A stretch of DNA of 64,000 bases from an uncultured Oscillospiraceae bacterium (GCA_947632175.1 CANROC010000014.1:25918-89917); one strand, 5' to 3'; counted from the stretch's first letter, positions 29,946-60,387 are shown. Numbers and translations are program-made. Notes: generated by a model not told the origin, from the letters alone.

Positions 29946-30215
29946 TCTTCGCTGTGCGTATTATACCACAAATCGAACGATTTGTCAAGTATTTTTTAGT
30001 ATTCGTAAGCAAAAATATGTAGTGGTCGCCGTCCCCGGCGGCCCCTACGGCGTTGATGGAACGTAATTTGGAAAATGTAGGGGCGGACCCATGTGTCCGC
30101 CCGTCCCCCGTCCCCGCCGCGCGGGCAAATTTAAAAAATGCGCCGCGAAGCGGCGCATCCTTTTTAAGCCCCCTCCTCGCAGGGCGGGACAGGGGGCAGC
30201 GAAAGGGGGGAATGA
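29946..30215. repeat. repeat cluster including promoter-bearing module copy a (minus strand)
   Basis: Minus strand TTGACA (29983-29988), 17 nt spacer, TATAAT (29960-29965), next to hairpin units gtggtcgccgtccccggcggccc and gtaggggcggacccatgtgtccgccc. Confidence 0.65.
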
Positions 30216-31658
30216 TCAGGCGGCACCGATGTCGCGGATCAGGGCGAGGAAGAGGGGGGTGTGAGTGGCGGTGTCTATGACCATGCAGAGAAAGGGGCGG
30301 TCCAGGGTAAGGCAGGGCTCCAGCACCGTGTCCTTTGTCTCCACGGCGGTGACGGCGGCTGCGCGGGTGCCGTCCTCGGCCACCTCCAGAAGCGTCTTAT
30401 GGAGGACCCGGGAGATGAAGACGTTCCCGGCGTCGCTATAACCGAGGCCGGAGAGGTCCGCAAGGGCGGGCTCAAAGGCCCTGACCATGCCCATGGCCGT
30501 CAGCGCCTCCCGCAGGTCCGACTCCCCCTCTACGGTGAACTTGGGGATGCCGCAGGTCACCCAGGACGCCTCGAAATCCTCGATCCCGTCCGCCTCCCCG
30601 GCCCCCGCCAGGAGCGCCCGGAGCTGCTCCCCGGTGAGGGAGGCCAGGAGCTCCTCCACCGTCACGCCCTCGTCGGGCAGGAGGGCGGCGAAGGCGAAGC
30701 CGTTTTCGTAGTTTTTGAGAAAGCCCGAGACGTTCTCCCCGGTGAAGAAGCCGTCCGGCCTGCTGAACATCATGGAGACGGTCCGCCGGGCGCCGTCCTC
30801 GGCGGTGAAGACGCGGTTCTCGACCCTTTCCACAACGTGATAGCGTCCCCTCTCCCACCTGGCCTCAAAGGCCAGGGCGTTCAAAAGGACCATCACGTCG
30901 TCCCGGGGGAGCTCGTCTAAAATCTCCGGGATCATGCCGTGCGTGCGGTCGCCGGCCCAGGCGTTGATGTCCCGGAGGGTGGCGTCGTCAAATGCCTCGG
31001 CGTGGATGGCGGCACAGTAGGTGTCCGCGTTTTTCTGAAGAAAATCGGGCTGGGCGTGGAAGCGGCTGTCCCGGTTGAGCCAGATGGCGTTGGCGACGCT
31101 CACCGCCTCCCCCGGAAGGCTCTCCCCGTAGGCCCGGAGGTACGCGCCCAGGGTCTCCGGGTCCCGGCCGAGAACGGCGGTCATCTCCTGAAGCGTCTCC
31201 CCCCGCGCCCCCAGGGCCGTCATGCCCAGGGCCGAGAGGACCGAGTAGGGGGAGATGAGCACGTTCCCGCCGGTGTCGCACGCCCGCAAAAGCCGCAGGC
31301 CGAAGTCCGCCGTCAGGGCGGCGTTCTCCGCCGTCAGCGTCCCGGGATCCGTGGGGACGCGGGCGCTCAGGCCCGCCATCAGATCCCCGGCGGCCAGGGG
31401 CAGCGCGGGACCTTGAGAGGGCGGCGTGTGAGCGGCGTCGGTGTCCGTGGGCGAGGCCGTGCCGGGGGTCGTATCCTCCACCGGTCCCGGCTCCCCGCCC
31501 CGGAGGACCGGCCACAGGCCCACCGCCAGCGCCAGGACCGCCGCCGCGGCCGCGATCCTGGGCCAGACCTTTTTCCGTTTCGGCGGGGCGGTAAAGGCCT
31601 CCGCCGCGAAGCTTTCGTCCAGATTTCCGATCTTATCGGCAAGCTGTCTGTCGTTCAT
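30216..31658 (-). CDS. membrane-anchored serpin (short cytoplasmic N-tail, one TM, Pro/Thr linker, serpin domain)
   Basis: Serpin core (..NVLISPYSVLSALGMTALGARGETLQEM..). Inhibitory-type hinge EDGTRAAAVTAV before the C-terminal LDRPFLCMVID. TM segment IAAAAAVLALAVGLWPVL. Confidence 0.85.
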   Translation of the reverse strand: MNDRQLADKIGNLDESFAAEAFTAPPKRKKVWPRIAAAAAVLALAVGLWPVLRGGEPGPVEDTTPGTASPTDTDAAHTPPSQGPALPLAAGDLMAGLSARVPTDPGTLTAENAALTADFGLRLLRACDTGGNVLISPYSVLSALGMTALGARGETLQEMTAVLGRDPETLGAYLRAYGESLPGEAVSVANAIWLNRDSRFHAQPDFLQKNADTYCAAIHAEAFDDATLRDINAWAGDRTHGMIPEILDELPRDDVMVLLNALAFEARWERGRYHVVERVENRVFTAEDGARRTVSMMFSRPDGFFTGENVSGFLKNYENGFAFAALLPDEGVTVEELLASLTGEQLRALLAGAGEADGIEDFEASWVTCGIPKFTVEGESDLREALTAMGMVRAFEPALADLSGLGYSDAGNVFISRVLHKTLLEVAEDGTRAAAVTAVETKDTVLEPCLTLDRPFLCMVIDTATHTPLFLALIRDIGAA

Positions 31659-32212
31659 ATGGGTATATCCTCCTTTTCCAGCGTCTCCCGCAGCTCCCGG
31701 CGCATCCGGTAGAGGATGCCGGTGACCTTGGAGACTGAAAATCCCGTTTCCCGGGCGATGAGGGCGATGGGGTCGAAGCGCCAGTAGCGCCGCAGGAAGA
31801 TGTGGCGCTTCAGGGGGCTCTGGGCGCGGAGGAAGTCCTCGATCACCTGCTCCGTCCGGCGTCCCTCCAACAGCGTCTCAGGTGTGCACGGCCCCGAAAC
31901 GCATTCGGAAAGCTCCTCCAGGGACTGGGTCACGGCGCTTCCCCGGCGCTGGGCGTTGAGGCGGTCGTAGAGCTTCAGCGCCGCCTTGCGCGTCAACGCG
32001 CAGACGAAGGCCCGCAGGGACCGGGGCTCCGTGGGCGGAATGGCGTTCCAGACCCCCAGGTAGGCGTCCTGCACCGCCTCCTCCCGGTCCTCCGCCACCG
32101 CCAGGATATTCCCCGCCACCGCCCGGCACAGCGCCCCATATTTGCGGTCCGTCTCCGCGACAGCCCGCTCGTCCCTGGCCACATACAGCGCCACGATCTC
32201 CCGATCCTCCAT
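31655..32212 (-). CDS. ECF-type RNA polymerase sigma-70 family factor
   Basis: 185 aa with region 2 (..AVQDAYLGVW..) and region 4 HTH (..IARETGFSVSKVTGILYRMRRELR). Its stop overlaps the serpin start (ATGA). Confidence 0.88.
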   Translation of the reverse strand: MEDREIVALYVARDERAVAETDRKYGALCRAVAGNILAVAEDREEAVQDAYLGVWNAIPPTEPRSLRAFVCALTRKAALKLYDRLNAQRRGSAVTQSLEELSECVSGPCTPETLLEGRRTEQVIEDFLRAQSPLKRHIFLRRYWRFDPIALIARETGFSVSKVTGILYRMRRELRETLEKEDIPI

Positions 32213-32428
32213 CGGATCACCTCCCTACCCAATAAGTACGGAAACAGACGAAAATCTCACAAAAAAATTAAAATTTAAAATAATAAAATATTTTTCGCGG
32301 GGCTTTGCCTCGCGAAAAATCCCTCTTGTCGCCCAAGTGTGCCGCCTCCGGCGGCGCGCGCAGGGCGACGGCAGAAGATAAGGCCGTGAATTCCGCAGAA
32401 TTCACGGCCTTATCTTCGCACGTTCCCC

Positions 32429-58177: not shown

Positions 58178-58206
58178 TTGCAAAATTCCCGTGAATGTAT
58201 TAGAAT
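58178..58206 (+). promoter_or_regulatory. internal promoter in front of tuf
   Basis: TTGCAA, 17 nt spacer, TAGAAT. Confidence 0.55.
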
Positions 58207-58261
58207 ACACTCAGAATTTGAAAACACCCTTTTCCAAAAACATTAAGGAGGATAAGTACCA

Positions 58262-59470
58262 ATGGCTAAAGCAAAATTCGAGCGCACCAAGCCCCATGTA
58301 AACATCGGCACCATCGGCCACATCGACCACGGCAAGACCACTCTGACCGCGGCCATCACCAAGGTTCTGAACATGGCCGACGCCAGCGCCGCCACCTACA
58401 CCGCCTACGACCAGATCGACAAGGCCCCCGAGGAGCGCGCCCGCGGCATCACGATCAACACCGCCCACGTCGAGTATCAGACCGCCGCCCGCCACTATGC
58501 CCACGTTGACTGCCCGGGCCACGCCGACTATATCAAGAACATGATCACCGGCGCCGCGCAGATGGATGGCGCTATCCTGGTCATCGCCGCCTCCGACGGC
58601 CCCATGGCCCAGACCCGCGAGCACCTTCTGCTTGCCCGTCAGGTGAACGTGCCCTATGTGGTCGTCTTCCTCAACAAGTGCGACCAGGTGGACGACCCCG
58701 AGCTCCTCGAGCTCGTCGAGATGGAAGTCCGCGAGCTTCTGGACAAGTACGAGTTCCCCGGCGACGACACCCCCATCATCAAGGGTTCCGCCCTTCAGGT
58801 CCTGGAGTCCAACTCCACCGATCCTCACGCCCCCGAGTATGAGTGCATCTGGGAGCTGATGGACGCTGTGGACAACTATATCAAGACCCCCGACCGCGCC
58901 GCCGACCAGCCCTTCCTCATGCCTGTTGAGGACGTCTTCACCATCACCGGCCGCGGCACCGTGGCCACCGGTAGAGTTGAGCGCGGTACCATCAAGATGA
59001 ACGAGAAGGTCCAGATCGTCGGCCTCATGGACGAGCCCCGCGAGACCGTCGTCACCGGTATCGAGATGTTCCGCAAGCTCCTGGACTACGCTGAGGCCGG
59101 CGACAACATCGGCACCCTCCTCCGCGGCATCGCGAAGAACGAGGTCGAGCGCGGCCAGGTCCTTGCCAAGCCCGGCTCCATCCATCCCCACACCAAGTTC
59201 CACGGCCAGGTCTACGTCCTGAGCAAGGACGAGGGCGGCCGCCACACTCCTTTCTTCAACAACTATCGTCCCCAGTTCTACTTCCGTACCACCGACGTCA
59301 CCGGCGTCATCACCCTCCCCGAGGGCGTTGAGATGTGCATGCCCGGCGACAACGTGGAGATGGACGTGGAGCTCATCACCCCCATCGCCATCGAGCCCGG
59401 CCTCCGCTTCGCCATCCGCGAGGGCGGCCGTACCGTCGGCTCCGGCGTCGTCACCAAGATCAACGAGTAA
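58262..59470 (+). CDS. tuf: translation elongation factor Tu
   Basis: [33 protein letters not shown]... Confidence 0.98.
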
Positions 59471-60387
59471 AAATGACTGGCTTTAGAGCCCGCGAAGCGG
59501 GCTCTAAATGCCAAGAGGAACGTGCGAAAAAAGTTTCGGAAATGTCTGCGGACATTTCCGAAACTTTTTTCTGCTGTTTTGCTCCGCGCACGGCCCCGTC
59601 GGGGCCGCACACTCCGCAAAACAAAAGGTATTTTTTCCGACGTACATGCCGCCGGAAAAAATGCTCGGCAGAGAGTTTTGTCCGCTTTCTTCTGATGTGC
59701 GTATTATACCACAAAATGAGTGATTTGTCAAGTATTTTTTAGTATTCGTAAGCAAAAATATGTAGGGGTCGCCGTCCCCGGCGACCCGCCCATCGTTTAT
59801 TGACACGTTTCGTACACCGCCGTACGGGCCGCATCTCCGCGCTAAGAGCCGCCGCTTCGCGGCGGTTGCGCTCCGAAACGCGCCTGCGGGCGCAGGCCCA
59901 CGGCGGCCCTTGCCCCCGATAACCGACATGTACCGTTTTATCGGACCCGTTCCCGTCCCGCAACGTGCCACGGGCGGACACATGGGTCCGCCCCTACGGG
60001 GAATATGGGAGGTTATCCCATTCAGCCGACATGGGAGGTCATCGGAACGCGGGCCGCCGTGGGCGGCGGCCCCTACGGCGTGAATGGGGCTGATGCGGCT
60101 TTTTGAAACCGCTCTGTTATCCAACGCTCGCTGCCCCCCTGCCCCCCTCCTACGAGGAGGGGGCACTAAAACCGGGGCTGGTGCGTTTTATCGGAACCGG
60201 TCCGTCCCACAACCGCGCACGGGCGGGTTTAGAACCCGCCCGTCCCCCGTCCCCGCCGCGCGGGAAAATCAAAGAATGCGCCGCAAGGCGGCGCAAACCT
60301 TTTTAAGCCCCCTCCTCGTAGGAGGGGGGCAGGGGGGCAGCGAAGGTTGGTTGACAGACCGGTCCCGGCGACCCGCATCCGCCCCTC
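59471..60387. repeat. repeat cluster downstream of tuf including promoter-bearing module copy c (minus strand)
   Basis: Minus strand TTGACA (59726-59731), 17 nt spacer, TATAAT (59703-59708). 59695-59945 is an inverted near-copy of 46620-46870, and 59516-59666 is an inverted copy of 36603-36753. Confidence 0.75.

Follow-up and report, generated by a model that had tools for sequence, protein, structure and literature searches.

The window analyzed here is a stretch of 64,000 nucleotides of DNA from an uncultured Oscillospiraceae bacterium (GCA_947632175.1 CANROC010000014.1:25918-89917; positions are counted from its first letter). It carries 3 copies (a, b, and c) of a short intergenic module built around a perfect-consensus sigma-A promoter, each pointing toward the stop codon of a convergent gene, namely atpC, tsf, and tuf, respectively. 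The copies belong to a family of 60 in the genome of this bacterium (3.54-Mb assembly, 57.9% GC; hereafter G000), which we compared with those of congeners, including 2 sister species, G017 and G019. Most members of this dispersed family face the 3′ ends of operons that appear, by their codon bias, to be highly expressed, and they probably dampen them.

Promoter modules facing atpC, tsf, and tuf

A search for the motif TTGACAAAT, followed after a short gap by TGGTATAATACGCACA, yielded exactly 3 occurrences in the window, against 0 in 100 shuffles, and they lie where a preliminary description of this DNA had placed them, although the number 3 holds for the window only. A consensus scan matched each copy at 12 of 12 hexamer positions, with the TTGACA, 17-nt spacer, TG, and TATAAT previously ascribed to it. 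An A/T tract (AATACTAAAAAATAC) precedes every −35 element, and a GC-rich hairpin cluster lies behind every copy, so that all 3 sit at the edge of a cluster and are aimed away from it, again as described. Pfam confirmed the identity of the facing genes, and the distances estimated earlier (approximately 50, 130, and 230 bp) correspond to 45 (atpC), 126 (tsf), and 224 nt (tuf) when measured from the stop codon to the module's end, which is marked by ACGC just past TATAAT, a few nucleotides from the predicted start. The features of the 3 loci are as follows.

29493–29906, plus strand: atpC (ATP synthase epsilon), convergent target of copy a (Pfam PF02823, PF00401)
29914–29947, plus strand: intrinsic terminator of atpC (10-bp stem and T-run), situated past the atpC stop (29906) and short of the antisense promoter
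29953–30003, minus strand: promoter module, copy a (motif 29953–29988; nhmmer score 58.6), comprising an UP-like A/T tract (29989–30003), −35 TTGACA (29983–29988), a 17-nt spacer ending in TGTGG, and −10 TATAAT (29960–29965); predicted start approximately 29953–29955
30018–30047, no strand assigned: imperfect hairpin of the repetitive extragenic palindrome (REP) type directly behind copy a, at the edge of a hairpin cluster (30018–30215)
46767–46788, no strand assigned: REP type-2 hairpin (GGGTCGCC..GGCGACCC) behind copy b
46808–46858, plus strand: promoter module, copy b (motif 46823–46858; nhmmer score 57.6), with −35 at 46823–46828 and −10 at 46846–46851; predicted start approximately 46856–46858
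46890–46979, no strand assigned: two perfect hairpins (46890–46935 and 46953–46979) between copy b and the tsf stop, with a GCGCGTTCCC motif in between
46986–47900, minus strand: tsf (EF-Ts), convergent target of copy b (Pfam PF00889)
58262–59470, plus strand: tuf (EF-Tu), convergent gene facing copy c (Pfam PF00009, PF03144, PF03143)
59482–59623, no strand assigned: hairpins B (59575–59623), C (59526–59571), and D (59482–59508), with a CGCACGTTCC motif
59620–59662, minus strand: hairpin A (59630–59662) with a T-rich tail, terminator-like on the promoter strand of copy c
59696–59746, minus strand: promoter module, copy c (motif 59696–59731; nhmmer score 58.1), with −35 at 59726–59731 and −10 at 59703–59708; predicted start approximately 59696–59698
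59766–59787, no strand assigned: REP type-2 hairpin behind copy c

The predicted transcripts have their first ~20 nt in common, and those of copies b and c also share a 3′ segment, made of a CGCACGTTCC-like motif, a variable hairpin, and AAAGCCAG adjoining the stop codon; both likenesses were among the earlier observations and held up. At copy a, the conserved GAAGAAAG of the module abuts the T-run of the atpC terminator, and the G017 orthologue has this same terminator without the module behind it. Neither of the two hairpins ahead of copy b has a T-run on its promoter strand, and no canonical intrinsic terminator (hairpin and T-run) for tsf was found on the minus strand at 46400–46985, where the stop codon is followed by hairpins lacking a U-tract; at the G017 tsf orthologue both hairpins are present and the promoter is absent. 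Copy c faces an array of 4 hairpins (minimum free energy −119.6 kcal/mol, z −10.1), in which hairpin C, with an A-run, stem, and T-run, is terminator-like on the tuf strand, and hairpin A predicts an RNA of ~70–75 nt from copy c. The array pre-dates the promoter, because the tuf flank of G019 carries hairpins D, C, B, and A without it and departs from G000 just past hairpin A, before the position that the promoter occupies in G000.

A genome-wide family of convergent promoters

The 60 copies in G000 were identified with a profile made from blastn matches and searched with nhmmer at a cutoff of at least 28 bits. The module spans ~55–75 bp. After the A/T tract come an extended −35 (TTGACAA) and a 17-nt spacer that closes with a TRTG-type extended −10 (TGTGG), followed by TATAAT and the ACGC start region. 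The first gene downstream of each copy was called with a codon-usage model trained on long open reading frames (ORFs) of G000. By these calls, the next gene is convergent for 52 of the 60 copies (~87%), whose predicted start falls 1–340 nt from its stop codon and, in ~30 of them, at most 50 nt away; several of the remaining 8 look, on direct reading, like miscalled convergent genes. The preliminary description had considered both random orientation genome-wide and a layout that is always convergent and terminator-proximal: the former is clearly not what we found, and convergence is the rule; many copies abut stop codons with no terminator in between.

As a control, we took all 138 perfect TTGACA-N17-TATAAT sites of G000, 55 of which are family copies. 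Inside the family, 47 of these sites are convergent and 7 co-directional, whereas the 83 outside it behave as ordinary promoters (52 co-directional, 14 convergent, and 17 with no call; Fisher p = 1.6e-13). The module remains aimed against the flow in tandem gene arrangements, with 22 cases in which the upstream gene is divergent. The GC skew of G000 is weak (58% of genes co-oriented), too weak for a replication-linked bias in orientation to be dismissed, and gene orientation is the better predictor of module orientation. Three family members are placed as sense promoters usually are, ahead of metK, def, and the gene for a U32 peptidase, which would count toward the promoter competence of the module.

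Other promoter arrays came to light in G000. Contig C61 (~1–3100) holds 8 perfect TTGACA-N17-TATAAT sites, all on the same strand and within 3 kb, with a comparable A/T-rich tract (roughly aaaaatttt...caaaaaacac) ahead of every one; they resemble phage early-region or tRNA-cluster arrays. Two other repeated promoter families occur, one on C19 (10497–34196), with 5 sites having TTGACAAGTCAAAAAG-type spacers, and one on C24 (13134, 13570, and 14029), with 3 near-identical promoters (cccacTTGACAGGGCGGCGG..) ~440 nt apart and one more on C5.

The family falls into short and long copies. In the short ones (~30), the start lies 1–60 nt from the stop codon; ~5 have a native terminator hairpin between stop and promoter, as at atpC, and in the others the promoter has the stop codon on one side and a hairpin on the other. 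In the aligned cases of the genes for pyruvate:ferredoxin oxidoreductase (PFOR), a hybrid kinase, and khpA, the hairpin beyond the promoter has an A-run, stem, and T-run and could thus terminate the sense gene. The generalization that the upstream hairpin is always the terminator of the sense gene was rejected: an A-run is on the appropriate side in 12 of 41 hairpins, a subset only. We looked on the promoter strand for hairpins with a T-run behind them, using the antisense strands of random gene ends as control. The short copies have such a structure within 150, 300, and 600 nt in 10%, 17%, and 23% of cases versus 8.5%, 16%, and 27% in the control, that is, at the control rate, and are therefore predicted to give open-ended antisense RNA.

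In the long copies (~19), a mosaic of perfect hairpins separates promoter and stop codon. Hairpin A, as in copy c, is found in 11 of the 19, where the hairpin and T-run end ~62–65 nt past the module, so that a discrete RNA of ~70 nt is predicted for them. The segment following the promoter is highly similar in at least 10 copies, with variation in a C-rich stretch (CCCCCAUCGAGC or CUCUCUGUCGAGC). The earlier proposal of short RNAs ending at terminators thus applies to this subtype and, in the window, to copy c, not to copies a and b or to the short copies in general. Rfam gave no real match for the module or the predicted RNAs, only hairpin look-alikes of miRNA precursors. Hairpin A (CCGGCGGCATGTACGTCGG) occurs 58 times in G000 and the motif GG(A/G)AACGTGCG 60 times, in both cases mostly away from promoter modules; the two are units of these mosaics in their own right. 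In the C5:62895 region, one long-type copy has as its convergent partner a small ORF that is equipped with a strong ribosome-binding site (AAGGAGG-N7-ATG) and begins MNKPKQKQRF.

G000 contains ~729 REP-type hairpins of 5 types, which are short, GC-rich, imperfect, extragenic palindromes in variable order. Genome-wide, all REP hairpins within 300 nt of a copy lie upstream of the promoter and none downstream. A hairpin is present within 75 nt upstream in 41 of 56 modules, usually within ~20 nt. The blocks upstream of modules are themselves mosaic, and 6 copies, including the 3 in the window, share a near-identical block in which a linker joins a type-2 REP hairpin to the promoter. Judged from this arrangement, the module is one building block of REP-type mosaics, placed at the gene-proximal edge of the hairpin cluster.

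The facing genes include tuf, tsf, atpC, rpoC, groEL, pfk, tpi, acpP, hpf, rny, spo0A, spoIIIAH, argS, cysS, and those for PFOR, citrate synthase, transaldolase, a cysK-like protein, and 4 SLH surface proteins, among others. On the main codon-usage axis (PC1), tuf, tsf, PFOR, groEL, and rpoC fall between the 98th and 99.9th percentiles. The median PC1 is 2.34 for module targets, 1.15 for genes with REPs but no module at the 3′ end, and 0.08 for all other genes; targets exceed the REP-only 3′ ends (p = 4e-7), and these exceed the others (p = 5e-13). The module is present at 17% of the top 5% of genes on this axis. By the measure of codon bias, modules would thus lie mostly at the last gene of highly expressed operons. 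As a separate observation, a single frame on C16 (L175; G000:C16:30170-32320) combines the Resolvase, Recombinase, and Zn-ribbon domains of a large serine recombinase with a SpoVT C-terminal domain; a recombinase element may have fused with, or interrupted, a spoVT-like gene there.

Conservation and spread of the module

To gauge selection, we aligned 25 orthologous pairs of modules anchored on the −10 element and took the third codon positions of adjacent genes as the yardstick. Divergence amounted to 2 of 150 positions in the −35 hexamer, 0 of 150 in the −10 hexamer, ~4% in the −10-proximal TTTGTGG, 12% to 32% in the central spacer, and 33% in the start region, compared with 12.8% at third codon positions. 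The difference between the hexamers (2/300) and the yardstick has p = 1e-14, or 1e-7 when the sample is halved for the kinship of the sister species. Each locus retains its own spacer sequence across species, and gene conversion or homogenization between copies therefore cannot explain the conservation of the hexamers. This pattern of divergence indicates that purifying selection is acting on promoter function at orthologous sites. An apparent palindrome in the spacer was considered as an operator and rejected: its left half (AAT after −35) has changed in ~24% of orthologous pairs, and such drift is the pattern of a working promoter rather than of an operator.

The module has a match in 14 of the 38 species of the genus, G000 included. 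At least 17 copies are found in G017 and at least 15 in G019, with G000 having ~3 times more than its sister species. Convergence is shared: among the copies of G017 and G019 it applies to 31 of 32, and in the more distant G001, G002, G014, and G021 to 4 of 4. At 27 of 31 sister-species sites, the module is also present at the orthologous site of G000. Outside the genus, 200 genomes representing 133 further genera of its taxonomic family yielded no copy. A core-pattern scan of genome contigs returned mostly generic strong promoters of Clostridia, many before tRNA genes, and only 2 loci of the family, in the metagenome-assembled genome Lapin-021__bin36, which appears to be G019. The same kind of scan of viral contigs gave only low-GC phage promoters of a generic type.

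In the IMG/VR contigs L233 and L235 (32% to 34% GC), a phage promoter is a close match to the module over ~47 nt, including the spacer (AATTGATTATTTTGTGG), a likeness that is probably due to convergence on the Firmicute optimum. A long-type element with promoter, conserved leader, and hairpin A, in which the −35 is degraded to CTGACA, lies at ~1380–1560 of L004 (G015:C46:11871-14923); it resides on a stretch of 41% GC in a genome with 7% contamination and may be foreign or mobile DNA or belong to another organism.

The module is absent from the orthologous atpC, tsf, and tuf 3′ flanks of 5 congeners, and the copies in the window are thus lineage-specific gains, which implies that the family still spreads. 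At all 3 sites, the flanks of G017 and G019 diverge from G000 at the junction, amounting to a replacement; in the atpC flank of G017, the terminator is followed by unrelated sequence that re-aligns with G000 only at a REP ~330 nt further on. The PFOR site has a plain terminator in 3 more distant species and the promoter with a different hairpin in the clade of G000, G017, and G019. The comparison with G017 and G019 revealed no target-site duplication at the atpC, tsf, and tuf junctions, and the unit ends have no terminal inverted repeats, only local hairpins. A MITE (miniature inverted-repeat transposable element), such as one of the Correia type, is rejected on account of these two absences, and the notion that one targets terminators is further at odds with the many copies that have no terminator between promoter and gene. 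What remains of that earlier idea is mobility, given the position of the module within mobile REP-type mosaics and the recent gains in the window. From the sequence comparisons, the family most likely spreads as a cassette tied to REP mosaics, by recombination or REP mobilization. Two matches to the Y1-transposase profile (PF01797) exceed the cutoff in G000 (L215, G000:C2:143596-143799; L216, G000:C1:5103-5273); they cover profile positions 53–121 only, that is, the C-terminal half, in open frames of 85–99 aa, and are candidate genes, or fragments of genes, resembling the REP-associated tyrosine transposases (RAYTs) for the REP families.

Probable antisense brakes and their known counterparts

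We consider it likely (probability of roughly 0.6) that these ~60 near-ideal sigma-A promoters, dispersed and under selection, act in antisense at the 3′ ends of highly expressed operons and dampen them. The family looks like a genome-wide set of antisense brakes of a kind not described before. The promoters would be active and, from just beyond the stop codon of an operon's last gene, would fire back toward that gene. Short copies would produce open-ended antisense RNA reaching into the coding region, and overlap with the sense mRNA is expected since they have no terminator ahead of it, which many long copies do; long copies with hairpin A would release a discrete RNA of ~70 nt. The net effect would be to dampen or tune the expression of the operon 3′ end, and new sites would be acquired through recombination or mobilization along with REP clusters. 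Among the options raised in the preliminary description, antisense regulation of operon 3′ ends is thus the best supported, by the selection on the hexamers and the codon bias of the targets.

Several considerations weigh against this reading. For a cell to aim a strong antisense promoter at tuf, rpoC, or groEL would seem expensive. There is no evident regulator, and the left half-site of the spacer is unconserved. The terminator-like hairpin of copy c and ~11 other long copies would stop the RNA before the gene, so that the label antisense does not apply uniformly. The gene calls come from a home-made codon model and are only partly verified, with Pfam run on ~46 convergent genes and a family match for 43 of them. 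The species compared are close relatives, and the kinship of G017 and G019 makes the orthologous pairs non-independent. Finally, the neutral yardstick is imperfect, being taken from synonymous sites in codon-biased genes, although this bias renders the divergence test conservative.

The same data could reflect a selfish passenger, a fragment of mobile REP mosaics that bears a promoter and does nothing for the host, whose copies were purged where they faced downstream genes and tolerated where they ran into gene 3′ ends or terminators. The proximity to the hundreds of REP-type hairpins, the RAYT-like fragments, the G000-specific gains at atpC, tsf, and tuf, the ~3-fold excess of copies over the sister species, and the enrichment of REP-flanked 3′ ends themselves for codon-biased genes all fit such an origin. 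Yet a dead passenger should decay evenly, whereas here the spacer centre and start region drift and the hexamers have changed far less than synonymous sites, a constraint that weakens the explanation; moreover, 27 of 31 sites are stable across the 3 species, targets are more codon-biased than REP-only 3′ ends, and the against-flow aim persists in the 22 tandem arrangements. We regard a mere passenger as unlikely, if still worth serious thought. A smaller chance attaches to the idea that the module is the promoter of multi-copy, trans-acting small RNAs, its proximity to gene ends being incidental; these RNAs would measure ~70 nt and begin with a C/U-rich, single-stranded part at the 5′ end, ahead of hairpin A and a U-run. 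The terminator-like hairpin in 11 of 19 long copies and the highly similar transcribed segment in at least 10 suit this layout, as does copy c; the ~30 short copies, which are the old and conserved ones, lack such a terminator and their transcribed sequence is unconserved (33% divergence), hairpin A mostly occurs without a promoter, including downstream of tuf in G019, and no Rfam family matches.

It is quite improbable that the module works at the DNA level, the RNA being a by-product and the bound polymerase or protein serving as a topological or roadblock barrier or the site as a trap for polymerase released at terminators. A perfect consensus promoter binds polymerase very tightly, and the module lies where the most heavily transcribed operons end, adjoining REP clusters, which suits such a role. 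Polymerase can also slide, flip, and re-initiate in antisense after termination (PMC6978322). The joint conservation of TATAAT, the TRTG motif, and the −35, however, fits productive initiation equally well. We give hardly any credence to a sense-strand element of the 3′ untranslated region (a decay or protein-binding site) or to the antitoxin half of a type I toxin–antitoxin system: although many copies lie inside the sense 3′ untranslated region, between stop codon and hairpin, the conserved positions are exactly the promoter hexamers on the other strand, 3 copies are ordinary sense promoters, and the convergent genes are, by Pfam, large housekeeping genes rather than small hydrophobic ORFs.

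A bolder form of the antisense-brake reading, which we think doubtful, is a selected genome-wide feedback device, in which a maximal-strength antisense promoter at the 3′ end of each most-transcribed operon would be fed by sliding or flipping of terminator-released polymerase. Antisense firing, and with it damping by collision and duplex RNA, would rise with sense transcription, and new operons would be enrolled by copy-and-paste of the promoter–hairpin cassette on REP clusters. Polymerase that stays on the DNA after termination (PMC6978322) suggests such a coupling of module firing to sense transcription, here as a hypothesis. Antisense transcription in bacteria is widely held to be mostly noise from weak, unconserved promoters (PMC3419515; as cited in PMC6978322). 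The module family is the opposite: paralogous, of perfect consensus, consistently oriented, aimed at the most-expressed genes, and with hexamers under selection. If the promoters are active, antisense promoters would have been recruited and maintained as a class, providing a natural counterpart to an engineered gene-tuning part and tying REP-type mosaics to expression control; the ~60 copies would also offer built-in replicates for relating convergent transcription, Rho, RNase III, and polymerase recycling to operon output in Clostridia.

Antisense initiation beside sense terminators, coupled to sense transcription, was reported by Harden et al. 2020 (PMC6978322); according to that paper, antisense promoters show little sequence conservation, unlike the perfect-consensus, paralogous, and conserved promoters of the module. 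As short noncoding intergenic repeats with strong promoters, dispersed and associated with families of palindromic repeats, the modules resemble the Correia elements of Neisseria, ERIC sequences, REPINs, and putative mobile promoters (PMC3575422; also PMC3024310, cited therein). Unlike Correia elements, which possess terminal inverted repeats together with a TA duplication, the module showed neither, and putative mobile promoters are defined upstream of genes in sense orientation, whereas the module is ~87% antisense at 3′ ends and shows site-level purifying selection. The order of GC-rich palindromic units and other motifs past operon 3′ ends recalls the mosaics of REPs and bacterial interspersed mosaic elements (BIMEs) in enterobacteria and pseudomonads, a likeness that the candidate Y1 (RAYT-type) transposase homologue in G000, matched over part of the profile, may extend. 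To our knowledge, no consensus promoter has been described as an edge unit of BIMEs with a fixed place and orientation.

The closest parallels in function are engineered or confined to a single locus. Synthetic parts combining a unidirectional terminator with a constitutive antisense promoter (Brophy and Voigt 2016; PMC4731013), tested in Escherichia coli, repress the upstream gene in proportion to how strong the antisense promoter is, through antisense RNA and polymerase collisions. The module likewise places a strong promoter at the gene 3′ end firing back, and copy a has the identical order of gene, terminator, and antisense promoter; it differs in being a natural paralogous family of ~60 copies, conserved across species and with an effect that is inferred here, and in that most old copies lie between stop codon and hairpin, not behind a terminator. 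In Clostridium acetobutylicum, a functional convergent promoter downstream of ubiG-mccBA makes an antisense RNA that controls the operon (PMC2566862). Unlike that single locus, which is gated by an S-box riboswitch and obeys a specific metabolic logic, the module is repeated, faces dozens of unrelated genes, and has no riboswitch (Rfam negative). By this analogy, the module family may be seen as generalizing the single-locus case of ubiG-mccBA.

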